This document shows, piece after piece, positions 6,374 to 43,281 of a stretch of DNA of 64,000 nucleotides. The translations under genes and the position numbers were made by a program. Source of the DNA: Firmicutes bacterium CAG:582. GTDB lineage: Bacteria; Bacillota_I; Bacilli_A; RF39; UBA660. Every line of letters starts with the position of its first letter. The first letter of the stretch is position 1. The stretch covers positions 1,980-65,979 of the forward strand of contig FR884183.1 in the NCBI GenBank assembly GCA_000435515.1. The letters run 5' to 3'. Below the pieces are notes generated by a model. It saw only the letters and a list, made by a program, of their open reading frames with translations, was not told where the DNA came from and made no database searches.

Positions 6374-7168
6374 ATGAATTATAAAGTATTAAATGAAATG
6401 GTGAAGTATATTGAAAATCACTTAGATGAAGAAATTGATTTTGATAAGTTATGCAAAATAACGGGAATGAATATTTTTATTTTAGAAAGAATTTTTAATT
6501 TTTTAACTGGAATAACATTAAAAGAATATATCAAAAAGAGAAGATTAAGTGCTGCTTTTGAAGAAATAAAAAACACGAATAACAAAATTATTGATATAGC
6601 AATTAAATATCAATTTAATTCAGCTACATCTTTTTATCGAGCATTTAAAAATCAATTTGGAATATCACCAAATGATTGCCGTAAAAAAGATGTAATGTAT
6701 CAAAGTGTTCCTATGATAATTTTTCCTTTGGATGATAAAGATTTTAATTTTGATTATGAGATAAAAGAATTTGCTCAAAAAAAATTATATTGTTATCATG
6801 TACATGAAAAAAATCATGATGACTTACTTTATCAAATACGAAAGTTGTTTCTTAATTTAAGACAAGAGCAAGATGTAGATAAATTGACTGAAAAAGAAAT
6901 GTTGTATGGCATTTTTATAAGACACAATGGTGAGTACAACTATTATTTAGGAACTACTATAAAAAATGAAAATTTAGAGGTTTATACTTTAGAAAACACT
7001 CGATATATTGTATTTAAATTAGCTGGCAGTAAGCAAGATGATATTGTTTCACTTGAAAGAAAAATAAAATTGTCTTGGTATCCTTCAACTAAATATAACG
7101 CTGATAAAAATATTACCATAGAAAATTATTCTAGTAATTATACATTTATTATGTTACCCCTAAAATAG
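6374..7168 (+). CDS. AraC-family transcriptional regulator with C-terminal GyrI-like effector-binding domain
   Basis: N-terminal AraC HTH pair (LCKITGMNIFILERIFN..., IAIKYQFNSATSFYRAFKNQFGISP). ATG 6374 is preferred over the track's TTG 6362 (GAGGTG RBS upstream). Confidence 0.85.
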   Translation: MNYKVLNEMVKYIENHLDEEIDFDKLCKITGMNIFILERIFNFLTGITLKEYIKKRRLSAAFEEIKNTNNKIIDIAIKYQFNSATSFYRAFKNQFGISPNDCRKKDVMYQSVPMIIFPLDDKDFNFDYEIKEFAQKKLYCYHVHEKNHDDLLYQIRKLFLNLRQEQDVDKLTEKEMLYGIFIRHNGEYNYYLGTTIKNENLEVYTLENTRYIVFKLAGSKQDDIVSLERKIKLSWYPSTKYNADKNITIENYSSNYTFIMLPLK

Positions 7169-7240
7169 TTTACATAATTGATATAGAAATTGTAAAGAAT
7201 CTAGAGATTAACTTTTTTATAATTGATTTGGTGATTAGTT

Positions 7241-8950
7241 ATGAAAAGTAAATCAATTAATATTATTAAAAACTATTTTTCATTAGTTGGCTATAAAGAT
7301 TTTGGCTTGTATGTTTTTACTTTAATATGTTTGATAAACGTTCTTATAGGTTTAATTAAACCTTATTATGAAGCATCAACTATAACTTTGTTAACAACAG
7401 CTTCTTATACTTTGGTTTTTAAAAACTTAGCAATTATAACTTTAATATTAATAATAAATAGAGCTTTATCTTTTATTACAAACACTCTATATGCTAAATA
7501 TTTTAAGAAAATATATGCAAGAGTTCATCAAATGCTAGTTAAGTCAGTGTGTGAATTTGATGAAAATTACGGAAGAGAAATTAATAATGGAAAAATCTTA
7601 AATTCATCTAATCAAGATATATTAAATATGGCGGAAATTCCATCAATTGTTTTTGAAATGATGATTGAAATAATTAAATTAGTTATATTGTTTATTATTT
7701 TTTTTAGTAAGAGTAAGTTAGTTTTTGTTTATGTATTCGTTGTTTTTCTGATTTATTATATTTTCGCTAAATGGTGTATTGTTAAATCAAATAGTTACTT
7801 GAAAAAACAACGTAAATATGCTGATGAATTGACTTCTTTATTATCCCAATTATTAAGAGGCCTTAAGGATGTTAAAAGTTTAGGCCTTTATTCTAAATTA
7901 GAAAATAAAATGAAAAAATTAAGAATTAAGTGGGGAAATAGTTATTATCAAAAAAGAAGATATTTAATAATTAGAAAAAACGTTGTTTCACTTTTTATTG
8001 ATATAGCTAAGTTTGGTATGCTCTTTATCTTAATTTATTTCTTAATTAACAACAAAATGGAATTGACTATTGTTTTATTATTGATATCATATTATGGTAG
8101 AATTAGAAAAACTTTGGATAATATTATTTCATTTTATATTTCTTTAGCAGAAAAATGTGTTTCTTTTGAACGTGTTAAAGATATTATTGATCATAAAAAT
8201 AACACTTGCTATATTGACAGTGTTTATAAAAAGAATGTAACTGGTGTAATTGAATTTAAGAATGTATCTTTTAAATACGATGATAAATTGGTTTTAAAAC
8301 ATGTATCTTTTAAAATTCCAGAAAATTCTTTGATTACTTTTGTTGGTGAATATGGTTCAGGTAAAACAACAATTTTTAATTTGCTTTTACGATTTTATAA
8401 TATAGATACTGGGAATATTTTGATCGATAATCTTGATATTTATAAATATTCTAAAGAAAAGTATAGTTCTATAATAAGTGTTGTAAATCAAAATACTTTT
8501 ATGTTTGATTTTAGTATAAAAGATAATTTATCTGTTGGTAATTCGTCTTTTAAAGATCAAGTTAAGGTATGTAAAAAGGTTGGAATACATGATCATATTA
8601 TGTCACTTAAAGACGGTTACAACACAGTGCTCAAAGAAAATGCTGATAATTTAAGTGGAGGTCAAAAGCAACTTTTGTCACTTGCACGAGTAATGCTTAT
8701 AAATCCGAAAATAATTTTGCTTGATGAAGTGACGTCGTCGTTAGATCCGAAAACATCTCATAAAATTTTTGAATTAATTAATGAGTTGAAGGGTAGTCAT
8801 ACTATACTGATTATTACTCATAATAAAAAAATAATGGAACTCTCGGATAATTTGATTTTATTAGAAAAGGGTAAAATTATGGGTGTCGGCAATCATAAGT
8901 TATTAATGAATAATAAAGCATATAAAAATTTGGTCGATAATGTAAATTAG
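7241..8950 (+). CDS. ABC transporter, fused permease/ATP-binding protein (type 1 exporter)
   Basis: 569 aa. Multiple N-terminal TM segments, Walker A GEYGSGKTT, signature LSGGQKQ, Walker B ILLDEVTSSLD, H-loop ITHN. Confidence 0.9.
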   Translation: MKSKSINIIKNYFSLVGYKDFGLYVFTLICLINVLIGLIKPYYEASTITLLTTASYTLVFKNLAIITLILIINRALSFITNTLYAKYFKKIYARVHQMLVKSVCEFDENYGREINNGKILNSSNQDILNMAEIPSIVFEMMIEIIKLVILFIIFFSKSKLVFVYVFVVFLIYYIFAKWCIVKSNSYLKKQRKYADELTSLLSQLLRGLKDVKSLGLYSKLENKMKKLRIKWGNSYYQKRRYLIIRKNVVSLFIDIAKFGMLFILIYFLINNKMELTIVLLLISYYGRIRKTLDNIISFYISLAEKCVSFERVKDIIDHKNNTCYIDSVYKKNVTGVIEFKNVSFKYDDKLVLKHVSFKIPENSLITFVGEYGSGKTTIFNLLLRFYNIDTGNILIDNLDIYKYSKEKYSSIISVVNQNTFMFDFSIKDNLSVGNSSFKDQVKVCKKVGIHDHIMSLKDGYNTVLKENADNLSGGQKQLLSLARVMLINPKIILLDEVTSSLDPKTSHKIFELINELKGSHTILIITHNKKIMELSDNLILLEKGKIMGVGNHKLLMNNKAYKNLVDNVN

Positions 8951-11322: not shown

Positions 11323-12357
11323 ATGAATTTATGCGAACTTTTAGAACGTGAAAATATTTATGATGTTAGATATGTTTTTGATCGTTATATGGAATTATAT
11401 CCAAATATAAATGAATATTTAAAATATTATGCTTTATTAGAAAATATTATTATAAAAGCAAATAAAAGTGACCTGTTTGCATATATTGTCGATTATCTTT
11501 TTCATGATTCTTATCAAAACGTTTATGTTAATATAAATGAAATGTTAAGGTATATAAGTATTCATCATACAGATACTCTTTTACCAACTAGTCATATAAA
11601 ATTTTATAAGAAAGTGCTAACATTAGAGTCCTTTTCGGTTGAAGAACTGTTATATTATTTTAATATTTTCAAAAAAGAAAAAATTTATTTAATGTTTTAC
11701 CATGACATTCGTAAGTTGAAAGATAAAAGTTATGATGAAATTTTAACTGATCTTACTGATTTAACTTTATTTGAACCAAATTATGAAATTAATGATATTT
11801 CAGTATATGACCTTAGACCTATTAAATACAAACTTTTAGTGAGAAGTTCAAGAAAATTTAAAAAATATTCATGTTATTATAAGTCTTATTATTCTATTAT
11901 TACTAGTATACATAATAGAACTTTTGGAAGAGAAAATGATTCTTTATCATTTGATTATGGATATCTATGTGCAGATGTAAATAAAATTCTACATGTTTCT
12001 GAAAGGGATTTATTGAGTAAATATTCGGACGAACATGACTGTGGAACACTAGCACCAAATAGGATAGTAAATTTGTATTCACTTACTGAATTTGATTCGT
12101 CATGGTCAGAAATTCAAATATTAAATTTAAAAGATACTGATAATTATAAGTGCTTAAAACCGGACTTTATAATTTCTTATAGTGAGCAAATTAAACCTAA
12201 AATTTTAAACGAAGCTCAAAGATTAGGAATACCAGTGGTTATAGTAAATAATAGGTCACTTGAATCGTTAGATAGTGATTGGCTGGAAAATGAAAAATAT
12301 AATACTTATTATGCAAATCCAGAATTTGACAAAAGTGTTAACTTTGTGTTAAGATAG
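11323..12357 (+). CDS. hypothetical protein
   Basis: 344-aa ORF with no motif I can recognise. Tyr/Asn-rich composition. Confidence 0.55.
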   Translation: MNLCELLERENIYDVRYVFDRYMELYPNINEYLKYYALLENIIIKANKSDLFAYIVDYLFHDSYQNVYVNINEMLRYISIHHTDTLLPTSHIKFYKKVLTLESFSVEELLYYFNIFKKEKIYLMFYHDIRKLKDKSYDEILTDLTDLTLFEPNYEINDISVYDLRPIKYKLLVRSSRKFKKYSCYYKSYYSIITSIHNRTFGRENDSLSFDYGYLCADVNKILHVSERDLLSKYSDEHDCGTLAPNRIVNLYSLTEFDSSWSEIQILNLKDTDNYKCLKPDFIISYSEQIKPKILNEAQRLGIPVVIVNNRSLESLDSDWLENEKYNTYYANPEFDKSVNFVLR

Positions 12358-12430: not shown

Positions 12431-12850
12431 ATGAAAGGATTTATTCTCGATTACATTAATGAAAATGAGTTTAGAAAATTAGAGAGAGCATTGAAAAAAT
12501 ATAATATGCTTGCTTTTAAAAAATTAAATTTTGAATACTACCCATCTTTACGTAAGGGAGAATTTTTAGGTGAATTGGTATCAACTGATACAAAAAAATG
12601 TACAGAAACTTATGAATTAAAGTTACCAAGTGATCATTTATTTACTCAAGTTCATGGTGAAGTAAAACTGAGATATATTGTTTATAAAGATCAAAATGTT
12701 GTTATGCTTGAAACTATTGAACCAAGGGATATTTTACTTGAGGGACATGTTGCTGAATTAACAACTTATAAAGGTGTTATGATTTCAAAGGCAAATGCTG
12801 ATAAAGATAAATTCATGGTAAACTTATTTTCTGCTATGGATCACAAATAA
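12431..12850 (+). CDS. hypothetical protein (weak RelE/ParE-like beta-core resemblance)
   Basis: 139-aa ORF with a GGGGGA RBS. The segment KLRYIVYKDQNVVMLETIEP resembles the YRIIY-x-n-V-x-I motif of RelE/ParE toxins. This is weak and judged by eye only. Confidence 0.5.
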   Translation: MKGFILDYINENEFRKLERALKKYNMLAFKKLNFEYYPSLRKGEFLGELVSTDTKKCTETYELKLPSDHLFTQVHGEVKLRYIVYKDQNVVMLETIEPRDILLEGHVAELTTYKGVMISKANADKDKFMVNLFSAMDHK

Positions 12851-12870: not shown

Positions 12871-12899
12871 TTGACAAAAGTTAAAAATTAATATATTAT
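12871..12899 (+). promoter_or_regulatory. sigma-A-type promoter (TTGACA-17-TATTAT)
   Basis: ttgaca at 12871-12876, 17-nt spacer, tattat at 12894-12899. Lies upstream of ORF 12926-13126. Confidence 0.5.
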
Positions 12900-12925: not shown

Positions 12926-13126
12926 TTGGTTATGGATGTATATAGAAAAAGAGAAAAAATTAAATATAATAACCAATTATTTCAAATTATTGAAAGAAAT
13001 GATAAAAAACTGGGTTTCTTGAAAATAAAATATGAAGGAGATAATGTGATTTATGAATATCCAACAGCTTATGAATTTTTACATTTAAGCAGTTTTATGA
13101 ATAAAAAAAACAGAATAAAATTCTAG
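12926..13126 (+). CDS. small hypothetical protein (66 aa)
   Basis: ORF with its own promoter and an AGAGGGGA RBS. Its stop overlaps the stop of the convergent endonuclease gene (ctag at 13123-13126). Confidence 0.4.
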   Translation: MVMDVYRKREKIKYNNQLFQIIERNDKKLGFLKIKYEGDNVIYEYPTAYEFLHLSSFMNKKNRIKF

Positions 13127-13869
13127 TTGTTTTTGGAGTCAATAAGTTTAAAGATGGAACTAATGCCATCTTTTCTTATCGCAAAAATTAGTCCCTTATT
13201 TCTGTTTTTTCCAAGTAAATTACTTGATCGATCGAATCTTAGAGAAACTGATATTCTAAGATCACCACTTTTTATAGCATCAATAAAATTTTCAAATTCT
13301 TTTAAAGTATAACAGTCAATTTGATAATATCTATAATATAAATCGTTATTTTCTTTTTTCTTACTAGCTTTTATTAGCACCATTTTTTTTACTTTTATTT
13401 CGGCTCTAGTTCTAATGGTGTCAAAATCGATATACCCAATTTTATCTATTAAAATTTTATTTTGATTATAAACATAAGTAACAATTCCATCATCAAGCAT
13501 TCTTAATTCGAAGTAGTGGTTCCCATATTCTACTGGCTTATTATACTTTAAAGCAATATTAAATATTTTTTTATCTTTATAGACTTTATCATAAATTCCA
13601 TAGTTATTTAAAATATAATCACTTTCATATTCGTGATATCCAGTGAATGTAGATGAGAACAAAGAAACTGGAAAGTTACTGAACCTAGTACTTGTCTTTA
13701 TTTCAATTTCTTTATAATCTGGGAATATGGAACTGTTAGGATTTATATTAAGAAGATATTCGAATGTAAGTCCACATGAATTATATGGATTATTATTAAT
13801 TGCTTTAACATATCCTTTAGAACTAATATCTTTAAACAATTTAATTATATCATTAAAATCCTTTTTCAT
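13123..13869 (-). CDS. MvaI/BcnI-family type II restriction endonuclease-like protein (PD-(D/E)XK)
   Basis: Collinear resemblance to MvaI/BcnI. N-terminal block NSCGLTFEYLLNINPNSSIFPDYKEIEIKT corresponds to the G-x-TFE-x-LL...PD...IEIKT catalytic region. C-terminal block GDLRISVSLRFDRS...GKNRNKGLIFAIRKD corresponds to GDIKVDIRIG...HGTAFRI. The second ATG (13869) is preceded by a perfect AAAGGAGG RBS and is preferred over 13884. Confidence 0.75.
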   Translation of the reverse strand: MKKDFNDIIKLFKDISSKGYVKAINNNPYNSCGLTFEYLLNINPNSSIFPDYKEIEIKTSTRFSNFPVSLFSSTFTGYHEYESDYILNNYGIYDKVYKDKKIFNIALKYNKPVEYGNHYFELRMLDDGIVTYVYNQNKILIDKIGYIDFDTIRTRAEIKVKKMVLIKASKKKENNDLYYRYYQIDCYTLKEFENFIDAIKSGDLRISVSLRFDRSSNLLGKNRNKGLIFAIRKDGISSIFKLIDSKNN

Positions 13870-13971
13870 GATTCCTCCTTTCATAAGTTTGTTATTATAG
13901 ATGGTTGATCTTGCAGTTTTTGTCGAAAAAAGAAATTATTTATAAAAAATATATTTTAGAATAAAAAGTAC

Positions 13972-14000
13972 TTGCAACCGACCGCCGGTTATGATATATT
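13972..14000 (+). promoter_or_regulatory. putative promoter for the tRNA pair (TTGCAA-17-TATATT)
   Basis: ttgcaa at 13972-13977 and tatatt at 13995-14000, about 30 nt upstream of the first tRNA. Confidence 0.5.
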
Positions 14001-14030: not shown

Positions 14031-14107
14031 GGATCTTTAGCTCAGTTGGTTAGAGCAACCGGCTCATAACCGGTCGGTCGTAGGTTCGAGTCCTACAAGA
14101 TCCACCA
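14031..14107 (+). tRNA. tRNA with CAT anticodon; probably tRNA-Ile2 (lysidine) rather than elongator Met
   Basis: Hand-folded cloverleaf. Acceptor GGATCTT/AAGATCC, D stem GCTC/GAGC, anticodon stem ACCGG/CCGGT with loop CTCATAA, T arm GTAGG-TTCGAGT-CCTAC, encoded CCA. The D and T arms closely resemble Bacillus tRNA-Ile(CAU). No initiator features are present. Confidence 0.92.
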
Positions 14108-14115
14108 TTTTTTGT

Positions 14116-14200
14116 GCAGGTATGGCGGAATTGGCAGACGCGCTAGACTTAGGATCTAGTGGAGTGATTCGTGCAGGTTCAAGTCCTGTTACCTGCACCA
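14116..14200 (+). tRNA. tRNA-Leu (anticodon TAG)
   Basis: Acceptor GCAGGTA/TACCTGC, anticodon stem CTAGA/TCTAG with loop CTTAGGA, long variable arm, T loop TTCAAGT, encoded CCA. Confidence 0.93.
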
Positions 14201-14594: not shown

Positions 14595-16073
14595 TTGATG
14601 AAAAATATTTTAACTATAGGAAAAAAAGGAATTACAAGCGGAGACTTTTTTGCTAGTGTTGCTCCTGATTATTGTAATCTCGTTATGTTTATTGATTTAA
14701 AAAATGATGATTTACTTGAAAAACTATCTCGTTATGATTTATTAATAAAAGCTGTAATGGAGGAATCATTTCTTGAACCTCAAGAAGCAAAAGACTTCTT
14801 AGCAACACTATTTTCATATGAAAACATTATAGATGCTTTCGATTACGTAGATTTGGATGCCGGTTTAGGAGACACAACTATTCCTAAAAATTTATTAGCA
14901 AAAAACTCTTGGATTAAATCAAAAAAGATAATTCTATCAAGTGATGAAATTTCTATTACTGATGCAGTTAAACTTGCTAATGAATATTCAGAATATAAAA
15001 ATCAACTAGTTTTTAAATTGAAGGGCAACAAAAAGTATGTTTCATATGAAGATGTTTTATCAATGAGTAAATTAATGGATAGCTACGTAGATTCAATTAA
15101 ATCATGTAATTTAACAAGTAAGCTTGAATTAGTCATGTTATCTTATGACATTGTTAGAAATCTTGTATATAGAAGCTTTGAGGAAACACCAAGTGAAGAA
15201 ATAACTATATTTGAAAAAATTTATAATACGAATTCTGCTCAGTTAAACTTTTCTCTATTGTTTTCTGAACTTTTAAACTATTTAGGCATTAACTCCAAAA
15301 TTGTAAATCATTATTCTGAAATAAATCGTAACAAGAAACTTTCTAGAGTTTCAGCTTATATAAAAGATGATAAATATAATGTTGATGGTATATATGTTTT
15401 TGATCCATTTCTTGACTGTATGAAGGGATTAAAAGAAAAAAAATATCCTACTTTATATAATTATTTTTTAAAAACAACTGATGAAGTAGAAAAGTGTGAT
15501 AAGGAAAAATTTCCATGGGAGAAATTTGAATCTAGAGAAGAAATTCAAGAGGGTAATATTAAAGGACTATCGATTTCGGAGATTGAATCTTTAGGAACTT
15601 CAAAATGGAAACATATTGAATACTTATATGAATTGGTTACTGGAGATACTTTTGATTTTGTTAAAAATGTTCTTATCAGTTCTGAAAAAGAAAAGAAATC
15701 CTTTATAGATAAAATATATGAATTTGAAAAAATGATGAATAAGCCTATTGATACAAAAACTAGATTAAGTCTTTTTGATAATGTTAGAAGAGCTGAATAT
15801 TATTATAATATAAACTCTTTGGATTATAATGTGGAAGATATGCTAGCTGTAATGGAATCAAGTGGTTGGAATATTGATGAATCAGAAATAACTCCAAAAG
15901 ACTTAAGCAAAAGAGAAAAAGAACTTTTAGGTTTATTTGGCGGAGTTAGTTATAAAGTAATCGGACTTCGTAAATTTATTAAAGAACAAAATATTGAAAA
16001 AAAGGTTAGTGGAGTAAGATTAACTAAAACGTTAAAAAAATATCTAGAGAATAAACAAAATGACTGTATGTAA
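14595..16073 (+). CDS. hypothetical protein (possible degenerate transglutaminase-like core)
   Basis: 492-aa ORF (ATG at 14598 is the likely start; AAAGGGGA RBS). The segment SAQLNFSLLFSELLNYLGINSKIVNHYS...RVSAYIKDD...GIYVFDP has the spacing of a transglutaminase core but lacks the Cys and His. By eye only. Confidence 0.6.
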   Translation: MMKNILTIGKKGITSGDFFASVAPDYCNLVMFIDLKNDDLLEKLSRYDLLIKAVMEESFLEPQEAKDFLATLFSYENIIDAFDYVDLDAGLGDTTIPKNLLAKNSWIKSKKIILSSDEISITDAVKLANEYSEYKNQLVFKLKGNKKYVSYEDVLSMSKLMDSYVDSIKSCNLTSKLELVMLSYDIVRNLVYRSFEETPSEEITIFEKIYNTNSAQLNFSLLFSELLNYLGINSKIVNHYSEINRNKKLSRVSAYIKDDKYNVDGIYVFDPFLDCMKGLKEKKYPTLYNYFLKTTDEVEKCDKEKFPWEKFESREEIQEGNIKGLSISEIESLGTSKWKHIEYLYELVTGDTFDFVKNVLISSEKEKKSFIDKIYEFEKMMNKPIDTKTRLSLFDNVRRAEYYYNINSLDYNVEDMLAVMESSGWNIDESEITPKDLSKREKELLGLFGGVSYKVIGLRKFIKEQNIEKKVSGVRLTKTLKKYLENKQNDCM

Positions 16074-16089: not shown

Positions 16090-16179
16090 TTCTTTTTTCA
16101 TATAATATATTAAGTTATATCTTGTAAATTTACTAAGATATTGATATATTTTTATTGTAAGATAGTGGAGGTGGGTAGT

Positions 16180-16923
16180 ATGGTCCATTTAACTTACGTA
16201 GAAAATCCATTTGACAAAGATTTTTTTACTTCTTTATCAAAATATGCATACGAAAAGAGTTTTTATGATTGCATTAACAAGCGTTTTGTTGATGAAGAAG
16301 CTTTTAAAAATTTGGAGTATGGATTCCGTATGTATATGCTTACTGGTGATAGTAATGAATGGATAGGTTTTGTTTTGTTTTCAAATGAAAATAGGGTTAA
16401 AAGTTTAAGGTATCATGCATATAATTACTTTTTGGAATGTTTAGATAGGCAAAAAAATTTAATTCCAGAGAAAGTATCAGAAGAAATGATTAAGATAATA
16501 ACTAACCAAAAAGAACAAAATATATTATTTAGTACAATTGATAAATGTTTTGAATATTTATCTACAATTGTTGGATCATCAATTATCAGTTTAGAAAAAC
16601 AAGCATATAATGAGAAATTGGATTCTTTATTAAATGATTTTGCTAATTATATGTATTTAGATACCTTTATATCTCTTCCAAAAGATGAGAAAGTAAGAAT
16701 TCGTTTAGAAAATGAACAAAGTAATTTAGATGAAAATGAATTAGTTGAAAAAAAATATTATGGTTTTATTCAGGAAACTTTGGGCTTGGTTGAAAACTTA
16801 ATACAAAACTCTTTTAATGGAATACATATTATTTTAAAACAAGAGGGAACAAATATATTTTTAGTAGAAACTAGTAGCTTCGTTGAGAATCATGAACTTA
16901 CGAAAGTTTTAATAAATCAATAG
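16180..16923 (+). CDS. hypothetical protein
   Basis: ATG 16180 is preceded by a GGAGGTGGG RBS (the track start TTG 16141 is less likely). 247 aa with no recognisable motif. Confidence 0.55.
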   Translation: MVHLTYVENPFDKDFFTSLSKYAYEKSFYDCINKRFVDEEAFKNLEYGFRMYMLTGDSNEWIGFVLFSNENRVKSLRYHAYNYFLECLDRQKNLIPEKVSEEMIKIITNQKEQNILFSTIDKCFEYLSTIVGSSIISLEKQAYNEKLDSLLNDFANYMYLDTFISLPKDEKVRIRLENEQSNLDENELVEKKYYGFIQETLGLVENLIQNSFNGIHIILKQEGTNIFLVETSSFVENHELTKVLINQ

Positions 16924-16964: not shown

Positions 16965-17003
16965 CGAACAAATGTTTACAAATAAGAACAAATGTTTTAT
17001 AAT
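16965..17003 (+). promoter_or_regulatory. promoter (TTTACA-17-TATAAT) overlapped by two tandem LexA/Cheo-box-like operators
   Basis: Box 1 cGAACaaatGTTTa at 16965-16978 and box 2 aGAACaaatGTTTt at 16985-16998, with starts 20 bp apart. -35 tttaca at 16975-16980 and -10 tataat at 16998-17003. The Firmicute SOS box consensus is GAAC-N4-GTT(C/T). Confidence 0.6.
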
Positions 17004-17021
17004 TTAATTGGTGATGAATTT

Positions 17022-18233
17022 ATGGATATAAAAGAAAAATTGCATATTCTTGCCGATAGTGCTAAATATGATGCATCGTGTTCATCAAGTGGAAGTGCTA
17101 GAGATGGTGATGGAAATGGAAATACTAATAGAAGTGGAATCTGTCATTCTTTTGCTTCTGATGGAAGGTGTATTTCTCTTTTAAAGATACTTATGACTAA
17201 TGCTTGTATTTTTGATTGCAGATATTGTCCAAATAGAAAGAGCAATGATGTTAAAAGGGCGATTTTTACTCCAACTGAAATATGTGAAATTACAATGAAT
17301 TTTTATAAAAGAAATTATATAGAGGGGTTGTTTTTAAGCTCAGGAATTATTAAAAGTCCTGATTATACAACAAATTTATTAATTGAGACAATCTATATGC
17401 TTAGAAATAAGTATAAGTTTAATGGATACATTCATGTAAAAGCAATACCTGGTACAAATGAATCTTTATTAAAAAAACTTGGATCTATGGTTGATAGAAT
17501 GAGTGCTAATATAGAGCTACCTACGGAAAATGGGCTTAAGTTATTAGCTCCTAACAAAAGTGAGGATAAAGTTACTAAAATAATGAAGTATGTTAAAGAA
17601 AATCGAAGTAAGCATTATGTTCCTGCCGGTCAAAGCACTCAAATGATTATAGGAGCAACTAGTGAAACTGATTTTGATATTATGACCAAAAGCAAAAAGT
17701 TATACGATGATCATAAATTAAAAAGAGTGTTTTATTCGGCATATATTCCTGTTAATAAAGATAATACGCTGCCAGCTATAAGTATTCCACCTTTAAAAAG
17801 AGAAAATAGACTTTATCAAGCTGATTTTCTTTTAAGATTTTATAATTTTAAAGTTGATGATATATTGGACAAAGAAAATCCTAATTTTAATCTATTATTG
17901 GATCCCAAAGCTGCGTGGGCTTTAAAAAATCTTCATTTATTTCCAAAAGAAATTAATACATGTTCTTATAATGAATTACTTCAAATACCAGGAGTGGGTG
18001 TAAAGGGAGCAAAGAAAATATATAGTTCAAGGAAGTATTTTAAAATAAAGTTTGAAGATTTGAAAAATATGAATATTGTTATGAAAAGAGCAAAATATTT
18101 TATTACTTGTGATGGTAAATATTTTATGGATTCGGCTAATTTTAAAAGAAACATAATAGAACAGTCATTATTGCTTGAAGATACAATAGAAAATAGAAGA
18201 CAAGTTAGTCAGTTGAGTTTATTCAATGAATAA
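17022..18233 (+). CDS. putative DNA modification/repair radical SAM protein (TIGR03916-like)
   Basis: N-terminus LADSAKYDASCSSSGS...GICHSF..DGRCISLLKILMTNACIFDCRYCPNR (CxxxCxxC radical SAM cluster). C-terminal helix-hairpin-helix LLQIPGVGVKGAKKI. ATG 17022 is preferred because track start 16992 lies inside the promoter. Confidence 0.9.
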   Translation: MDIKEKLHILADSAKYDASCSSSGSARDGDGNGNTNRSGICHSFASDGRCISLLKILMTNACIFDCRYCPNRKSNDVKRAIFTPTEICEITMNFYKRNYIEGLFLSSGIIKSPDYTTNLLIETIYMLRNKYKFNGYIHVKAIPGTNESLLKKLGSMVDRMSANIELPTENGLKLLAPNKSEDKVTKIMKYVKENRSKHYVPAGQSTQMIIGATSETDFDIMTKSKKLYDDHKLKRVFYSAYIPVNKDNTLPAISIPPLKRENRLYQADFLLRFYNFKVDDILDKENPNFNLLLDPKAAWALKNLHLFPKEINTCSYNELLQIPGVGVKGAKKIYSSRKYFKIKFEDLKNMNIVMKRAKYFITCDGKYFMDSANFKRNIIEQSLLLEDTIENRRQVSQLSLFNE

Positions 18234-18975
18234 TAAAGTTTATGTTTATAATGATAATTTCTTAAGTCTTTTAGCTTTAATTGTAATTTTGATAAGAAAG
18301 AAAACTATACCAAAAGATATAAAACCATGTAACTTTGAATTTGGTTTATTTGATGAAGTAGAAGAACTCTTATTGCCCGAAAAAGAAGAAACTATTAATT
18401 ATATTATAAAAAATATTGGGTATGATAATTTTAATATGATATTTAGGCTTTATCTATCGGTGTTTAAAGATAAAGAATTATTTATTTTCTATTATTGTTT
18501 GTATTCCTTAAAGTACAAAGAAACAACTAGGTTTATGCGTAACAACAAATGGGTGAATGAAACTTTAAAGCAAAGTCTGTATGTATCAAGAGAAAATCAT
18601 AAGTTTAAAGGATTCACTAGATTCAAAAAAATGAATAATGAAATTTATTATGCTGAAATCAATCCGACTAATAATATTCTTCCATTACTATCCAATCATT
18701 TCAGGGCTCGTTTAAAAAGTGAATACTGGATTATTAAGGATGTTAATAGGAATTTATATAGTTTATATGATAAGAAAAGTTTTATTATTGTTTCTGGTGA
18801 TGAATTCAAGATAAATGATTTTAATTTGAGTGATGATGAGGATAAGTTCTTAAGTCTATGGAAAGAATTTTATAATACTGTTGGAATAAAGGAAAGAAAA
18901 AATGATAGGTGTAGAATGAACTTCATGCCTAAAAAATATTGGAAATATATTATGGAAGTGAGTGATGAGTTATGA
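18226..18975 (+). CDS. DUF4130 family protein (TIGR03915-like probable DNA metabolism protein), without a UDG-like domain
   Basis: Characteristic blocks HKFKGFTRFKKM..EIYYAEINPTNNILPLLSNHFRARL..EYWIIKDVNR and C-terminal ERKNDRCRMNFMPKKYWKYIMEV. Overlaps the radical SAM gene by 8 nt. Confidence 0.85.
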   Translation: MNNKVYVYNDNFLSLLALIVILIRKKTIPKDIKPCNFEFGLFDEVEELLLPEKEETINYIIKNIGYDNFNMIFRLYLSVFKDKELFIFYYCLYSLKYKETTRFMRNNKWVNETLKQSLYVSRENHKFKGFTRFKKMNNEIYYAEINPTNNILPLLSNHFRARLKSEYWIIKDVNRNLYSLYDKKSFIIVSGDEFKINDFNLSDDEDKFLSLWKEFYNTVGIKERKNDRCRMNFMPKKYWKYIMEVSDEL

Positions 18976-20495
18976 AAAAGGTAGTTATAGGAGAAGAACT
19001 TGATAAAATAATTAAAAAATCTTTGGATATATTATGCGATACTGTTGGATCAACGCTTGGGCCAAAGGGAAATAATTCGATTATCTCTAGTTCGTCTTTA
19101 CCAGCTTTTGTAACAGATGATGGTGTAACTTTAGCTAGAAATATTGAAAGTGATGATGTATGTGTTAATTCTGTTTTAGAAATATTAAAAGAAGCATCAA
19201 TTAGAACTGATGAAATAGTTGGGGATGGAACAACTACAGCTCTTGTTTTATTAAAAGCTATAATGAGTAATGCTAATGACTTAATACGTTGTGGGATGAG
19301 TAGATATGAAGTGAAAAAAAATTTAGAAAACGAGGAAAAAATGATAGAAGATTTGATAATAAAAGAATCTTTTAAACCTGATGATAATGCTTTAAAAAAT
19401 ATAGCTACTACTAGTTCAAAGTCTGAAAAAATAGGAGAAACTATTTACCAAGTTGTAAAAAAAATAAGAAACATTGCTGGAGTTACAATAACAACTAGTA
19501 ATAAAGAAGAAACATGTGTTAAATATTTTAAAGGTTATGAATTTGACACTAACTTAGCAAGTCCTTTTTTCTTTAAAGGAACTTCAAGTATAAAATTAAA
19601 AAATCCGTATGTTCTAGTTACTTCTGAAAGTATATATGATATTGAAAAATTGAGTAATTTAATAAATAAGAGTTTTGTTGATAAAAGAAATCTATTGATA
19701 TTTGCTGCTGATTATGATGAAGATGTAATAAATCAGGTATTATCGTTTAACTATGATAATGATTTAAAAATATATTTGCTAAAAAATCCTGAATTTGGAA
19801 AAAGGCAATATCTTTTAATGAGTGATTTATTGGAAATATGTAATTGTAAGGAATATAAGAATCAATTTAGTTATGATAATGTTGGAGTAGTTAAAGAGAT
19901 TGTTATCAATAAAGATAAAACTTATGTTTATTTTGATAATAATTTAGCAGCTTATATTGAAGAAAATAAAAGTAATTTAGAATATATCAATGATGAATTT
20001 GACATCAACTACTATGAAAGACGTATTTCAATGCTCTCTGATGGACTTGCAACTATTGAGGTAGGCGGAAAAACTATAAGTGAAGCAAGAGAAAACAAAA
20101 TGCATTATGATGATGCAATTCATGCGACTTATTCAGCTTTAGAAGGTGTAAACATAGGAGCGGGATATACCTATTTAAAAATATCATCAACTTTAGAAGA
20201 TAATTGTATTTTAAAAAATGCTTTATGTGTTCCTTTTAGACAAATTTTAAAAAATGCTGGATTAGATGTAAATACGATTGAGAAAAATGTAACATTTGAT
20301 TTTAAGAAGATATATAATGTCAAAGTTGATGACTATGAAGGTATTGATTCTCCTTCGGTTTTGGATTCGACGAAAGTTCTAATTCAGTCATTAAAAACGG
20401 CTGTATCCATTGCTAATATTTTACTCAGCACAGGTAGTTTAATAATTAATGAGCAAATAAAAAATATTGATATAGATCATGATATCAATATTTAG
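18972..20495 (+). CDS. divergent Cpn60/GroEL-family chaperonin-like protein (no GroES partner, no GGM tail)
   Basis: Aligns by eye with the GroEL equatorial domain: TLGPKGNN (GroEL TLGPKGRN), DDGVTLARNIESDD (KDGVTVAKEIELED), VGDGTTTALVLL (AGDGTTTATVLA), later EGVNIGAGYTYL (EEGIV-x-GGG). 507 aa. Its ATG overlaps the upstream TGA (ATGA at 18972-18975). Confidence 0.8.
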   Translation: MKKVVIGEELDKIIKKSLDILCDTVGSTLGPKGNNSIISSSSLPAFVTDDGVTLARNIESDDVCVNSVLEILKEASIRTDEIVGDGTTTALVLLKAIMSNANDLIRCGMSRYEVKKNLENEEKMIEDLIIKESFKPDDNALKNIATTSSKSEKIGETIYQVVKKIRNIAGVTITTSNKEETCVKYFKGYEFDTNLASPFFFKGTSSIKLKNPYVLVTSESIYDIEKLSNLINKSFVDKRNLLIFAADYDEDVINQVLSFNYDNDLKIYLLKNPEFGKRQYLLMSDLLEICNCKEYKNQFSYDNVGVVKEIVINKDKTYVYFDNNLAAYIEENKSNLEYINDEFDINYYERRISMLSDGLATIEVGGKTISEARENKMHYDDAIHATYSALEGVNIGAGYTYLKISSTLEDNCILKNALCVPFRQILKNAGLDVNTIEKNVTFDFKKIYNVKVDDYEGIDSPSVLDSTKVLIQSLKTAVSIANILLSTGSLIINEQIKNIDIDHDINI

Positions 20496-35737: not shown

Positions 35738-36725
35738 GATATGTTTTGGATGTGGTATAAAACTACAATCAACTGATAAGGAAAAACTTGGTTATGTGCC
35801 AGAAAAAAAGTTGGAATCATCAAAATATTGTATGCGTTGTTTTAGAATGATGCACTATGGAGAGGTAAGATTAGAAGAAACTCCTAAGGATAAAAAAGAA
35901 ATTATTAACAAAATCAATAAGGATAATAAGTTTGTAATATTCTTAGTAGACTTTTTAAATATAAATGATAATACAATGGATTTATATAAAAGTATAAAAC
36001 GCGATAAAATTCTTGTAATCAATAAGTGTGAGTTATTGCCTAAACATGTTAAACGTGAAAACATAAAAAAATTCATCATAGAATATTATCACGTTAATGG
36101 AGAGATAAGAATTAAAGGTGGTAATAATTCTCATGGAGCTACGTCTATTTTAAATTACTTAGAAAAAAATAATATAAAAGAAACTTATATAGTTGGAATG
36201 ACTAATGCTGGTAAAAGCACTTTAATAAATGATTTAATAAAGGCAACTAATACTGATATTTCTAAAATAAATGTAAACAATAAAAAGAATACGACTCTTG
36301 ATTTTATTCGTGTAAAATTGAATAATGGTCTTCTTTTAATTGATTCTCCAGGGATTGTTTTTGATGATTTTGTTTCATGTGATGTTGTTGATGATAATAT
36401 TGGAGCTTATAGTTTTAATATGAAATCAGGTGAAATTCTTTCTTTACTTGATGGAAAATATTATATAAAAGTAGATTCATCAACTCCAATAACTTTTTAT
36501 ACTAATCTAAATGCTAAAAATGTTGCTAAGAAAGTTTATAAAAGTTTTGATGATTTTGAATATTCAATAGAAGTTTTAGAAACTACAGATATAGTTATAA
36601 AGGGTATTGGTTTTATATCTATAAAAAATGGAACAAAAGTAAGTCTTAATGTAGATCCTAAATATATAGAAGTTAGAAAGAGTATTTTTGGAGGTATATA
36701 TGAAAATACAAGTAATGAGCGATGA
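35730..36725 (+). CDS. yqeH: ribosome biogenesis GTPase YqeH (circularly permuted)
   Basis: N-terminal zinc knuckle CFGCG...CMRCFRMMHYGE. G4 INKCELL precedes G1 GMTNAGKST. DSPG motif is present. Confidence 0.85.
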   Translation: MNKICFGCGIKLQSTDKEKLGYVPEKKLESSKYCMRCFRMMHYGEVRLEETPKDKKEIINKINKDNKFVIFLVDFLNINDNTMDLYKSIKRDKILVINKCELLPKHVKRENIKKFIIEYYHVNGEIRIKGGNNSHGATSILNYLEKNNIKETYIVGMTNAGKSTLINDLIKATNTDISKINVNNKKNTTLDFIRVKLNNGLLLIDSPGIVFDDFVSCDVVDDNIGAYSFNMKSGEILSLLDGKYYIKVDSSTPITFYTNLNAKNVAKKVYKSFDDFEYSIEVLETTDIVIKGIGFISIKNGTKVSLNVDPKYIEVRKSIFGGIYENTSNER

Positions 36726-38475
36726 TTTAGCTAATAAAATCGCAGCTGGAGAAGTTGTTGAGAGAATTTCATCAGTTGTTAAAGAATTAGTTGAAAATAG
36801 TATAGATGCTGGTAGTAAGACTATAATTGTTGATTTAGTTGAGAGTGGAACTAAACAAATTAAAGTAACTGATGATGGAAGTGGAATGGAACATGATGAT
36901 GCTCTTTTGTCATTTAAAAGACATGCTACAAGTAAGATAAAAAGAGAAGATGATTTGTTTTTCATTTCTACTTTAGGATTTCGTGGTGAGGCATTACCAA
37001 GTATTGCATCAGTTTCAAAAGTAGATCTTCGTACTTCGACTGGAGTGGGAGGAACACACATCGTTATTAATGGAGGGGCTTTAGTAACTGATGAGGCTTC
37101 TCAAGAAAAACGTGGAACAACTATAAGTGTTAATGATTTGTTTTATAATACGCCCGCTAGATTAAAATATTTAAAAAGTGATATTACAGAACTTTCTAAT
37201 GTAACTACATATATTGAAAAATTAGCATTAAGTCATCCAAATATTTCTTTTACTTTAACTAATAATGATAAAAGAATAGTATTTACTTCAGGTAGTTCAG
37301 ATCTTCTTAAAACGATTCATGAAATTTATGGGTATCAAGTTAGTTCTAATATGCTTTATTTTAAATCTAATAATGATGATTATGATATTTATGGTTTTAT
37401 TTGTAAACCTAGTATTTTAAAAAGTAATAGAAACCATATGACAACTATCGTTAATGGTAGATGTGTTAGAAATGCAGAAGTTAATGCAGCTATAAATGAT
37501 GGATATCATACTTTTAAGCCGGATATAAAGTATCCTGTTGTAGTAATGATGATTGATACTGATCCTACTCTTATAGATGTTAATATTCATCCAACAAAGC
37601 AAGATATTAAATTTTCAAAAATTGAAGGACTTAAAACCCTTATTACCGAAACGGTTAATTCCACTTTAAAAAAGGCTCTTTTAATACCAAAGATAGATAC
37701 ATATGAATATCAAGAAATAAATGAGTATCCAACAATATCAGATGTTGAAAAGATAGAAACTGAAGAGATTCAATTTGATTTTAAAACGACTCCAAAAGAA
37801 GATGTTACTAAAGAATCTACTTTTGAGGATATTAAAGAAATAGTAGATGAAACTAAAAATCCTGCTTTAGTTGAAAACGAACAAATAAAAAAAGAAGAAC
37901 TATATGCTGTTGGAATTGTTTTAGGAACTTATATAATAGCTCAAAATGAGAAGGGAATGTATTTAATTGATCAACATGCAGCACAAGAGAGAATTAATTA
38001 TGAGCGTGTTTTAAGAGGCCTTGAAAGTGCAACTATTTATACAACGCCTTTACTTCTTCCAATTCCAATTGAACTTACGACATCAGAATTTTTAAAGATA
38101 AAAGAAAATATTAACGTATTAAATGATTTGGGCTTTAAAATAGAAGAATTTGGTATAAATACGTTTGTAGTTAAAGAACATCCTACATGGTTGATAAATG
38201 GATTAGAAACGGAAAGTATTAGACGTATTTTTGATATTATAATTGAAGGTAAGAATATGTTTGATCGTGTTAAATTCCATGATCATATAGCAGCAACAAT
38301 GGCTTGCAAGATGAGTGTTAAGGGTAATGAAGCAATAACGCTTGAGCAGGCTCAAAAGCTATTAGATGATTTAGTTTTGTGTAATAATCCATATAATTGT
38401 CCACATGGTAGACCAACGATAATTACATTTACACGTTATGAACTTGAAAGAATGTTTAAAAGGGTTATGAATTAG
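36700..38475 (+). CDS. mutL: DNA mismatch repair protein MutL
   Basis: MKIQVMSDDLANKIAAGEVVERISSVVKELVENSIDAG, GFRGEALPSIASVS, C-terminal QHAAQERINYE and CPHGRP endonuclease motifs. ATG 36700 is preferred; it overlaps yqeH by 26 nt. Confidence 0.93.
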   Translation: MKIQVMSDDLANKIAAGEVVERISSVVKELVENSIDAGSKTIIVDLVESGTKQIKVTDDGSGMEHDDALLSFKRHATSKIKREDDLFFISTLGFRGEALPSIASVSKVDLRTSTGVGGTHIVINGGALVTDEASQEKRGTTISVNDLFYNTPARLKYLKSDITELSNVTTYIEKLALSHPNISFTLTNNDKRIVFTSGSSDLLKTIHEIYGYQVSSNMLYFKSNNDDYDIYGFICKPSILKSNRNHMTTIVNGRCVRNAEVNAAINDGYHTFKPDIKYPVVVMMIDTDPTLIDVNIHPTKQDIKFSKIEGLKTLITETVNSTLKKALLIPKIDTYEYQEINEYPTISDVEKIETEEIQFDFKTTPKEDVTKESTFEDIKEIVDETKNPALVENEQIKKEELYAVGIVLGTYIIAQNEKGMYLIDQHAAQERINYERVLRGLESATIYTTPLLLPIPIELTTSEFLKIKENINVLNDLGFKIEEFGINTFVVKEHPTWLINGLETESIRRIFDIIIEGKNMFDRVKFHDHIAATMACKMSVKGNEAITLEQAQKLLDDLVLCNNPYNCPHGRPTIITFTRYELERMFKRVMN

Positions 38476-41936: not shown

Positions 41937-42380
41937 ATGTTGATGGGTGAATATCATCACAATATTGATGATAAAAATCGACTAGTTCTTCCGAGTAAAT
42001 TTAGAAACGAATTAGGAGATAAAATCATTATTACTCGTGGACTAGATAAATGCTTATTCGTCTATTCGACCAGCGAATGGCAAAAAATTGTCGACAAATT
42101 AAAAACTTTACCATTTACACATAAAGACGCTCGTGACTTTGTTCGATTTTTCTTATCTGGCGCTATCGAAGCTGAATTTGACCGTAGTGGAAGAATCAGC
42201 ATTACCTCCCCATTGATCGGATATGCCGGTATTACACGTGAATGTGTCATTATCGGCGCAAACGATCGACTAGAAATTTGGGATAATGATTCATGGAATA
42301 ATTTCCTAAATGAAAATGATGAAAGATTTGCAAGTATAGCAGAAAATTTATTTACTACAGGTGATTATAATGCATTATAG
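41937..42380 (+). CDS. mraZ: transcriptional regulator MraZ
   Basis: MLMGEYHHNIDDKNRLVLPSKFR... with duplicated SpoVT-AbrB halves (DxxGR motifs DDKNRLVLP and DRSGRISI). ATG 41937 is preferred over track start 41904. Confidence 0.93.
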   Translation: MLMGEYHHNIDDKNRLVLPSKFRNELGDKIIITRGLDKCLFVYSTSEWQKIVDKLKTLPFTHKDARDFVRFFLSGAIEAEFDRSGRISITSPLIGYAGITRECVIIGANDRLEIWDNDSWNNFLNENDERFASIAENLFTTGDYNAL

Positions 42381-43281
42381 TGTTTTACTTAAAGAAAGTA
42401 TTGAACTACTTAATATAAAAGAAAATGGAATTTACGTTGATTGTACATTAGGATATGCTGGTCATAGTAAAGAAATCTTAAAAAGATTAAAAACAGGATT
42501 TCTTTATGCCTTTGATCAAGATTTAGAAGCGATTGATTACTCTAAAAAAGTTTTATCGGAGATTGGAGATAATTTTGAGATAATTCATTCTAACTTTTCT
42601 AATTTAAAAAGTGAACTTATGGAAAGGGGAATTACTCAAGTTGATGGAATTTTATTTGATTTAGGGTTTTCTTCTCCTCAAATTGACAATGTTGATCGTG
42701 GTTTTTCTTTTATGAAAGATGCAACATTAGATATGCGTATGGATCAAACGGCAAAAAAAAGTGCATATGATGTAGTAAATAATTATAGTCAAGAAGAATT
42801 AACCAATATATTTTATAAGTATGCTGAAGAAAAATATTCTAAAAGTATTGCTAAAAATATTGTATCTTCAAGGCCAATAAAAAAAACATTAGAACTTGTA
42901 GATATTATAAAAAGAAGCGTTCCGGTTAGTTATTATAATACTAGACATCCAGAACGAGTTATATTTCAAGCATTAAGAATTGAAGTAAATAATGAACTTG
43001 GTGTTTTGGAAAATGTTTTGCCTGATGCTATAGATTTATTAAAGTGTGAAGGCAGAATTGCTGTTATAACGTTTCATTCTTTAGAGGATAGAATAGTTAA
43101 GCATATATTTAAAAATGCCAGTGAAGTTCCAGAAATAGTTAAAGGTATCCCTGATATACCTGATGAATATAAGCCAAAAATAAAATTAATAAACAAAAAA
43201 CCAATTGTTGCATCAAACAATGAAATAAATGAAAACTCACGAAGCAAAAGCGCTAAACTTAGAGTAATAGAAAGGGTATAA
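42370..43281 (+). CDS. rsmH: 16S rRNA (cytosine1402-N4)-methyltransferase RsmH
   Basis: HYSVLLKESIELL...YVDCTLGYAGHS, DGILFDLGFSSPQID, ITFHSLEDRIVK, NSRSKSAKLRV. Confidence 0.93.
   Translation: MHYSVLLKESIELLNIKENGIYVDCTLGYAGHSKEILKRLKTGFLYAFDQDLEAIDYSKKVLSEIGDNFEIIHSNFSNLKSELMERGITQVDGILFDLGFSSPQIDNVDRGFSFMKDATLDMRMDQTAKKSAYDVVNNYSQEELTNIFYKYAEEKYSKSIAKNIVSSRPIKKTLELVDIIKRSVPVSYYNTRHPERVIFQALRIEVNNELGVLENVLPDAIDLLKCEGRIAVITFHSLEDRIVKHIFKNASEVPEIVKGIPDIPDEYKPKIKLINKKPIVASNNEINENSRSKSAKLRVIERV

Follow-up and report, generated by a model that had tools for sequence, protein, structure and literature searches.

The window analysed here, a 64-kb stretch (64,000 nucleotides) of contig FR884183.1 from Firmicutes bacterium CAG:582, encodes on its minus strand (13123-13869) a 248-residue nuclease of the MvaI/BcnI type, located beside two tRNA genes. 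The nuclease belongs to a previously undescribed group of lone, tRNA-adjacent nucleases found in hundreds of uncultured gut bacteria. Its gene is not half of a linked restriction-modification (R-M) cassette; instead, an inverted tRNA-Met-like relic, a predicted promoter of its own and the nuclease form a single-gene cassette at a tRNA-Met/tRNA-Leu locus. This cassette is inherited mostly vertically and evolves fast. Judged by sequence, catalytic residues and predicted fold, the protein belongs to the MvaI/BcnI family but departs from the canonical enzymes in its base-reading residues and in having no adjacent DNA methyltransferase (MTase). When its methylase is missing, an active Type II restriction enzyme should be lethal to the host, so that orphans which stay intact over long times are rare and informative. 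In this case, being an orphan is no accident of a single genome but the rule for two clades, distributed over hundreds of uncultured gut Bacilli species. We judge the chances to be about even that the gene encodes an intact, solitary, tRNA-anchored accessory defence nuclease, with the host DNA spared by a function not encoded nearby.

Active site, predicted fold and recognition surface

The nuclease open reading frame (ORF) begins with an ATG at 13867-13869; a longer in-frame ATG would give 253 residues. Four nucleotides before the ATG lies the ribosome-binding site AAAGGAGG (13874-13881, minus strand), read from the sequence, which the initial annotation of this DNA had rightly called perfect. 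The same annotation had placed the protein in the MvaI/BcnI family and had recommended a search with PF15515. This search matched the full-length MvaI_BcnI profile (1-227 of 227) with E=3.5e-28 and 99.6 bits, against a cutoff of 25, and the family assignment holds. The MvaI chain 2OA9 is matched with E=1.6e-14; the two proteins, of about 248-249 residues, are collinear over their full length at ~22% identity. A search with a profile of the clade gives MvaI with E=1e-35 and BcnI with E=4e-4, and the PADLOC REase_II profile matches the nuclease with E=9e-14.

The active site of MvaI is formed by Glu36, Asp50, Glu55 and Lys57 (PMC1874612). These residues align with Glu37, Asp51, Glu56 and Lys58 of the nuclease, the last three within the motif FPDYKEIEIKT, so that the catalytic arrangement described earlier is kept. 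The four positions are invariant in a 40-sequence family alignment, and the tetrad is retained in 79-80 of 81 genomic relatives. From the 40-sequence alignment, AlphaFold2 gave a model with a mean predicted local distance difference test score (pLDDT) of 94 and a predicted template modelling (TM) score of 0.88. Foldseek superimposes it on the MvaI-DNA complex 2OAA with a TM score of 0.89 and a root mean square deviation of 2.0 Å. The second match is BcnI (2ODI; E=9e-11, TM 0.68), and MvaI and BcnI are the only Foldseek matches of the model at E<=0.001. The ORF, Pfam and PDB profile matches, the model, Foldseek and the ratio of nonsynonymous to synonymous substitution rates (dN/dS, see below) together identify the product as an intact, selected-for PD-(D/E)XK DNA endonuclease with the two-lobe MvaI fold and predicted activity. 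From this type of fold, the enzyme is predicted to be a monomer.

R.MvaI of Kocuria varians (2OA9/2OAA), a monomeric Type IIP enzyme cutting CC^WGG, shares with the window nuclease its Pfam family, collinearity, catalytic Glu/Asp/Glu/Lys, predicted two-lobe fold and length. It differs in sequence, in its base readers, which are replaced here, and in its genetic setting, since no M.MvaI-type N4-cytosine MTase is adjacent to the window gene, which forms a chromosomal tRNA-linked single-gene cassette. R.BcnI (2ODI; Type IIP, CC^SGG, monomer) is alike in family and fold, so that sequential nicking would be expected, but is more distant than MvaI and is accompanied by MTases; the central base pair of its site is read by His77 and His219.

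In MvaI, bases are read in the major groove by Asp207, Arg209, His223, Asp224 (through its main chain), His225 and Arg230, plus Thr68 (PMC1874612). Pairwise and profile alignments to MvaI agree in placing Ser207, Ser209, Arg223, Asn224, Lys225 and Ala230 of the nuclease at the first six of these positions. The sole conservative change is that of Thr68 to Ser69, and a serine or threonine is found at this position in 55 of 81 relatives. Tyr213 of MvaI is replaced by an aspartate. The nuclease therefore does not carry the base-reading residues for CC(W/S)GG. The family as a whole splits in two, an MvaI-like group with the motif HDHGT and a group with NRNKG or YRNKN; the window nuclease has NRNKG and belongs to the latter, which has a conserved set of its own (Ser207, Arg211, Ser215, Asn224 and Lys225).

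The initial annotation had assumed a CCNGG-type site and had proposed counting candidate sites. In the window, CCWGG occurs 18 times, with 18.0 expected, and CCSGG three times, with 4.25 expected; CCNGG as a whole is only mildly depleted (21 against 32). Avoidance of CCWGG or CCSGG as a means of self-protection can thus be rejected, both being present at about the expected frequency. As the MvaI base readers are mostly replaced and these sites are not avoided, the assumption of a CCNGG-type site is unsupported and such a site unproven; from the residues present, the target is probably not plain CCWGG. Homology alone should not earn genes of this kind the annotation "restriction endonuclease, CCWGG-type".

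When every palindrome of 4 or 6 bp and every quasi-palindrome of 5 bp in the window was counted, no single depleted site stood out. GATC is the most under-represented palindrome (104 occurrences, against 145 from shuffles or 183 from a Markov model; z about -3.7 to -6.9), and AGCT, CATG, TGCA, GAATTC and CANTG are likewise depleted. This depletion suggests long restriction pressure unrelated to CCNGG.

Solitary genes in two clades

A scan of one genome per species from GTDB found 313 loci encoding relatives of the nuclease. Comparisons between loci rest on the best 80 of these 313, the ORFs of which were clustered. All 80 are from metagenome-assembled genomes of uncultured low-GC gut Bacilli, a few being labelled Mycoplasma, Tenericutes, Erysipelotrichaceae or Clostridium sp. 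CAG:914. In a simple neighbour-joining tree, 22 sequences with HDHGT (clade A) are set apart from about 58 with RNKN (clade B), among them the window nuclease. Clade A retains the His-Asp-His of MvaI, yet is also solitary. One clade A locus (L078, 7273-8738) has two nuclease genes in tandem; in one of the paralogs Glu/Asp/Glu/Lys has become Tyr/Arg/Ser/Lys, making it catalytically dead by sequence, whereas its neighbour is predicted to be active.

The gene content of the window was taken from Pfam annotation of identical metagenomic contigs, which cover nearly all of it. It includes three genes with a methyltransferase fold, none of them DNA-acting: 1943-2713, 42361-43281 (RsmH, TIGR00006) and 60963-61574 (O-methyltransferase type). 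The first had been described as a small-molecule type and as the only methyltransferase of the window; its type stands, but it is not the only one. As had been proposed, no DNA MTase is adjacent to the nuclease gene, and none is encoded within ±10 kb of it or in the 64-kb window. DNA MTase families are likewise missing from the 25 listed Pfam families of the 137 immediate neighbours of the 80 homologous loci, where D-Ala-D-Ala carboxypeptidase, CysS, ribosomal protein L27 and XRE-type helix-turn-helix (HTH) proteins recur. A strict screen for MTase motifs gave no matches; a relaxed screen, Pfam and direct MTase probes were then used. Four ORFs with NPPY, SPPF or PCQ motifs within 8 kb are PrmC, an Mbeg1-like protein, an Fe-S protein and one protein without identity, and are not DNA MTases. 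These searches covered 64 kb of this genome (plus about 10 kb beyond) and about 16 kb per relative.

Members of the same nuclease family on plasmids served as a positive control. In C. perfringens (pCPCPI18-6_1) and L. curvatus (pL127-2) they form cassettes in which a divergent DNA MTase is followed by an HTH controller-type protein (C protein) of ~100 residues and then by the endonuclease. The Macrococcoides caseolyticum plasmid p19Msa198-1 has the same layout, with unannotated neighbours. These plasmid nucleases are 24-25% identical to the window nuclease, but unlike it are found on mobile plasmids and have the divergent SPPY-type MTase and the small HTH controller directly upstream; the window gene has neither. 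Homologs of the FxGSG/SPPY MTases of the plasmid cassettes were not found in 1.88 Mb of window and related loci. As these searches found no DNA MTase beside any of the 80 loci, being solitary characterises the clade rather than a single genome.

Type II endonucleases without a linked MTase have been described before, as an uncommon category (Ershova et al. 2012, PMC3488263). The cases of that survey resemble this one in having an intact endonuclease gene with no MTase within several kb, and the same candidate explanations apply. However, they are mostly sporadic orthologs of R-M-linked enzymes, whereas here both clades are solitary throughout (80 of 80 loci), and their linkage to tRNA genes is conserved. 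The survey (PMC3488263) does not mention MvaI or BcnI. In the literature, we found no account of entire clades of the MvaI/BcnI family, two in number here, in which the gene is regularly solitary, of an almost invariable linkage of such nucleases to tRNA-Met/tRNA-Leu(TAG), or to tRNA-Pro in clade A, or of an inverted tRNA relic travelling with a nuclease gene.

Three neighbours were considered as partners of another kind. A 139-residue protein (12431-12850) adjoins the nuclease in two orientations and was hence considered as a dedicated partner or antitoxin. This was rejected: the gene is a common and strongly conserved one, and of 80 metagenomic loci fetched with it only three have a full-length nuclease close by. 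The protein has no Pfam or NCBIfam match, is 95-100% conserved where FtsK is 90-97% conserved and has at least 375 relatives in metagenomes, which in most cases are encoded shortly before the tRNA-Met/Leu pair. Apparently it belongs to the core genes of these Bacilli and has yet to be characterised. A 66-residue convergent ORF (12926-13126, plus strand, from the ORF scan), the stop of which overlaps that of the nuclease, is conserved in the subclade of the window only and persists where the nuclease has been deleted, so a role as partner is not supported. It has a predicted near-consensus promoter at 12871-12899 (TTGACA-17-TATTAT, from a consensus scan), and no terminator is predicted between it and the 3' end of the nuclease gene; the convergent transcripts should therefore overlap, and antisense damping of the nuclease is possible. 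The pair of genes matching TIGR03916 and TIGR03915, 3 kb away, was considered as a protector of host DNA; co-occurrence does not support this, the pair being present in the window subclade only.

The tRNA locus, inheritance and loss

The two tRNA genes lie on the plus strand. The tRNA-Met(CAT) gene (14031-14107; ARAGORN, and Rfam RF00005 with 75 bits) is 162 bp upstream of the nuclease start and divergent from it, and is followed by the tRNA-Leu(TAG) gene (14116-14200; ARAGORN, and Rfam with 58.7 bits). From its resemblance to the tRNA-Ile2 of Firmicutes, we take the former to be a candidate for a tRNA with a lysidine-modified CAU anticodon. The initial annotation had named the two tRNA genes and the 66-residue ORF with its overlapping stop as neighbours of the nuclease. 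The ORF scan, ARAGORN and Rfam confirm this, but the tRNA genes are not mere neighbours, being the most conserved feature of the nuclease gene context.

A tRNA gene is located within 600 bp of the nuclease gene in 63 of the 80 loci. For clade B, 52 loci have enough flanking sequence to judge, and in 49 the nuclease is within 650 bp of a tRNA-Met(CAT)/tRNA-Leu(TAG) pair. In 44 of these 52, both tRNA genes and the nuclease are co-directional, with tRNA-Leu 121-532 bp upstream; in five (the window, L014-L016 and L072) the pair is inverted and the nuclease is divergent from tRNA-Met at 161-242 bp. The pair is 1.2 kb away in one of the remaining loci, and two have no upstream pair (in L059 it is downstream). 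For clade A, 17 loci could be judged; in 13 of them a tRNA array ends with tRNA-Pro(TGG), and the nuclease gene is convergent with this tRNA gene. The protein-coding genes outside the tRNA/nuclease unit vary widely between loci.

Promoters and terminators mentioned here are all consensus predictions only. A sigma-70-like promoter for the nuclease, TTGCAA-18-TATATT (13948-13977, minus strand, 9 of 12 matches), and a divergent, TG-extended promoter for tRNA-Met/tRNA-Leu, TTGCAA-17-TATATT (13972-14000, plus strand), share a palindromic -35 hexamer. In most clade B spacers, a terminator-like hairpin is present 3' of tRNA-Leu, along with promoter-like elements of their own, making co-transcription with the tRNA operon an unlikely cause of the linkage.

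Within the predicted tRNA-promoter spacer, directly upstream of the predicted nuclease -35 element, lies the tRNA-Met-like relic CAACCGACCGCCGGTTATGA (13975-13994, no strand assigned). It is inverted with respect to the adjacent tRNA-Met gene and matches tRNA positions ~34-50, from the anticodon loop to the variable region, with a local alignment score of 26 against a shuffle maximum of 19. In the clade B spacers, the stretch past the hairpin is typically the reverse complement of tRNA-Met positions ~30-60, and in some loci reaches the CCA end or takes in the D-arm. In 40 of 46 clade B loci, the inverted relic scores higher than each of 200 shuffles. It was absent from all 25 metagenomic loci with the same tRNA pair and no nuclease, and it can thus be rejected as a general feature of this tRNA locus. 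The GC-rich core of the relic is very rare in these genomes: the pattern ACCG.{1,2}CGGT occurs twice in the 64 kb, in the relic and in tRNA-Met only. Of 74 occurrences of CCG.{1,3}CGG in 977 kb of loci, 48 are in tRNA-Met, 18 just upstream of the nuclease and eight elsewhere. In clade A, the interval from the nuclease stop to the real tRNA gene contains an inverted fragment resembling tRNA-Pro (or tRNA-Ala), which scores above all shuffles in about 9 of 13 loci with comparable tRNAs, weaker evidence than for clade B.

Integration into tRNA genes typically duplicates the portion from the anticodon loop toward the 3' end (PMC2853133). The relic preserves this portion, but inverted and without an accompanying integrase. 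The cassette thus resembles the tRNA-integrated islands and R-M units described by Furuta et al. 2010 (PMC2853133) in its position at a tRNA 3' flank, in the partial tRNA copy and in the presence of an integrase element at the same site in a conspecific strain. It is unlike them in having no integrase and a single cargo gene, and in that the fragment is inverted and derived from tRNA-Met and not from the nearest tRNA gene, tRNA-Leu. As the fragment is inverted and single, the flanking direct repeat of a tRNA-integrated island is missing.

The nuclease is under purifying selection, with a dN/dS between orthologs of 0.06-0.12 at unsaturated dS of 0.27-0.8 (Nei-Gojobori). The initial annotation had allowed for a decaying remnant; these values, the intact ORF and the kept catalytic residues (79-80 of 81 relatives) rule this out. 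The identical protein is present in 242 blocks of a public assembly index, with the same synteny in all, and orthologs of 62-64% identity hold the same position. Among relatives in which SerRS, FtsK and the 139-residue protein are 90-100% identical, the nuclease is 61-86% identical, a divergence rate similar to that of several other variable neighbour genes. Divergence of the nuclease is correlated with that of the core genes (Pearson 0.69, Spearman 0.45), which argues for mostly vertical inheritance, while outliers, such as some pairs of loci with 80% identical core genes and 33% identical nucleases, suggest occasional replacement. In one lineage (L094, L009 and L017), the ATG start has become ATT ATT behind an intact GGAGG, and dN/dS within this lineage is 0.079.

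In nuclease-less loci, fetched via the 139-residue protein, unrelated genes occupy the position 3' of tRNA-Leu(TAG). From a look at their sequences, these encode HAD hydrolase, HD-domain, GNAT, thioredoxin-like and leucine-rich repeat proteins; for several, Pfam gave nothing. In L122, Pfam identifies a NERD nuclease-domain/Zn-ribbon protein there (7091-8122). L166 is 97.9% identical to the nuclease-bearing L164 over 6.7 kb up to tRNA-Leu, beyond which a tyrosine integrase (PF00589, E=1e-27; 6676-7372) takes the place of the nuclease. The 3' flank of tRNA-Leu(TAG) is therefore an integration hotspot with alternative cargo.

The nuclease can also be lost without replacement. Compared with the nuclease-bearing L094 (6690-7448), its close relative L095 (6689-6915; 139-residue protein 96% and FtsK 90% identical to those of the window) lacks about 715 bp, cleanly and in frame. 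What is left of the nuclease between the 66-residue ORF and the tRNA pair are its initial 7-9 and final 3-4 codons, and the ribosome-binding site is degraded. The gene is thus dispensable. A free-standing homing endonuclease would be expected beside a conserved target gene and to be present or absent among close relatives. The linkage to tRNA genes is strong; the absence allele of L095 is a deletion and not an empty site, and L166, which departs from L164 exactly at tRNA-Leu, has an integrase element there.

Possible functions and neighbouring genes

The nuclease most likely serves as an accessory in defence. As with MvaI and BcnI, a single molecule would then engage a short site in an asymmetric manner and, using Glu37, Asp51, Glu56, Lys58 and Mg2+, cleave only one strand each time it binds. 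A rewired reading surface formed by Ser207, Ser209, Arg211, Arg223, Asn224 and Lys225 would replace Asp207, Arg209, His223, Asp224, His225 and Arg230 of MvaI. Protection of the host DNA would be supplied by a function not encoded beside the nuclease gene. In the leading form of this model, a modification function would be located elsewhere in the chromosome, which would leave the nuclease gene free to come, move and go; almost as likely, the enzyme would attack modified or foreign-specific DNA only, or would only nick. Several points weigh against the combination of a rewired, solitary defence enzyme. Arg223 and Lys225 could still read guanines, and with a serine or threonine at the Thr68 position in 55 of 81 relatives, partial CC/GG recognition is conceivable; rewired recognition is not required for the solitary state, since clade A keeps His-Asp-His. 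An unlinked MTase elsewhere in the genome is possible, the sample per genome being thin. The neighbours of the nuclease are housekeeping or unassigned genes, with no recognisable defence island at the locus. A search for phage relatives of the nuclease gave no matches, which also rules against a phage origin. Finally, the ATT start could mean that there is little or no translation in that sub-lineage.

A split Type IIP R-M system, in which the nuclease cuts an unmodified short site and an MTase making N4-methylcytosine, 5-methylcytosine (m5C) or N6-methyladenine is encoded at a distance, possibly as a lineage-wide orphan, is a plausible explanation, though less likely than not. Separated pairs account for 19 of 74 solitary Type II enzymes in the published survey (PMC3488263). 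The solitary state of clade A, with its MvaI-like His-Asp-His, is most easily explained by a shared unlinked protector. Loss of the nuclease is harmless, as it should be with an independent MTase, and protection would be needed if CCWGG or CCSGG, present at expected frequency, were the sites. However, neither the window nor 1.88 Mb from related loci, a thin sample per genome, contained a DNA MTase, the canonical family members inspected all have an adjacent MTase and C protein, and an unlinked pair kept across hundreds of species and many rearrangements is demanding. If there is indeed a lineage-wide unlinked MTase, this would be a clean natural split R-M system, with a nuclease freely gained and lost. 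It is possible, if somewhat more doubtful, that the nuclease works independently of any MTase, as a modification-dependent enzyme (Type IIM- or IV-like) or as a tolerated strand-specific nickase. The solitary, stand-alone state as the rule for a whole clade, the rewired base-reading residues, and fast evolution combined with dispensability, as in many defence genes, are consistent with this. Methyl-directed nicking is documented in MutH and in MvaI, which nicks m5C-modified BcnI sites (PMC3001055), and a single substitution is enough to turn BcnI into a nickase (PMC3089477). On the other hand, clade A is solitary with an MvaI-like His-Asp-His, and we know of no characterised modification-dependent enzyme of this fold besides MutH and the side activity of MvaI. 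With such an enzyme, the MvaI/BcnI/MutH fold would gain a new class of defence nucleases that act alone, and new nicking or methyl-directed reagents might be obtained.

The linkage to tRNA genes (49 of 52 loci in clade B and 13 of 17 in clade A, there at the end of the tRNA array) also brings to mind a selfish, homing-like element or an island remnant, persisting through tRNA anchoring or targeting and perhaps the last gene of a tRNA-integrated element. The relic spans the portion typical of tRNA-targeting integration (PMC2853133) and travels only with the nuclease, an integrase element occupies the same site in L166, and in some pairs 80% identical core genes accompany 33% identical nucleases. 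We nevertheless regard this as unlikely, given that the cassette contains no integrase or transposase, that the relic is inverted with no direct repeat, that nuclease divergence mostly follows host divergence, that the sole clean absence allele is a deletion, and that strong purifying selection argues for a benefit to the host. A related idea, also rather unlikely though slightly less so, is that both sister clades are MTase-free tRNA-anchored cassettes of a new stand-alone defence or selfish nuclease, for which self/non-self discrimination or mobility could depend on the tRNA-derived, GC-rich ACCG-N-CGGT element. The core of this element is otherwise almost absent from these AT-rich genomes, and it might be an operator or target of the enzyme, or a recombination handle. 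That the gene is silent or its product catalytically inert, and tolerated because it is not expressed, seems decidedly unlikely. The ATT start in one sub-lineage, convergent transcription from the strong predicted promoter of the 66-residue ORF, which could damp expression, and the dead tandem paralog of L078 would fit, but dN/dS is low (0.06-0.12, and 0.079 inside the ATT lineage), the tetrad is intact in 79-80 of 81 relatives and the window gene has its perfect ribosome-binding site. A housekeeping repair nickase, analogous to MutH in mismatch repair, is highly improbable and was rejected. MutH and the likewise GATC-specific Sau3AI are monomeric PD-(D/E)XK relatives of MvaI and BcnI (PMC1874612), and MutH is itself solitary and nicks in a methyl-directed manner. 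The nuclease gene lies among chromosomal housekeeping genes, with mutL in the window, and GATC is the most depleted palindrome. Yet neither MutH nor Sau3AI was retrieved by sequence profile or Foldseek, the gene is patchy, deletable and evolves far faster than core genes, and the MutL of the window has the endonuclease motifs DQHAAQERINYE and CPHGRP, which make it self-sufficient.

The mutL gene itself is located at 36688-38475 and encodes a Bacillus-type, MutH-independent protein, with DQHAAQERINYE as its DQHA(X)2E(X)4E motif; mutS is not adjacent to it in the window. The operon containing the TIGR03916/TIGR03915 pair (16992-20495) encodes a putative DNA modification/repair radical SAM protein (TIGR03916, 594 bits), a DUF4130 protein (TIGR03915) and a GroEL-like paralog. 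The latter is divergent (275 bits, below the GroEL cutoffs), translationally coupled and only 58-89% conserved among close relatives. Coupling of a chaperonin paralog to a putative DNA-modification pair is unusual. Three further proteins flanking the locus, of 344 (11323-12357), 492 (14595-16073) and 260 (16141-16923) residues, have no family match and are among the fastest-evolving of the region, with 25-79% identity between close relatives.

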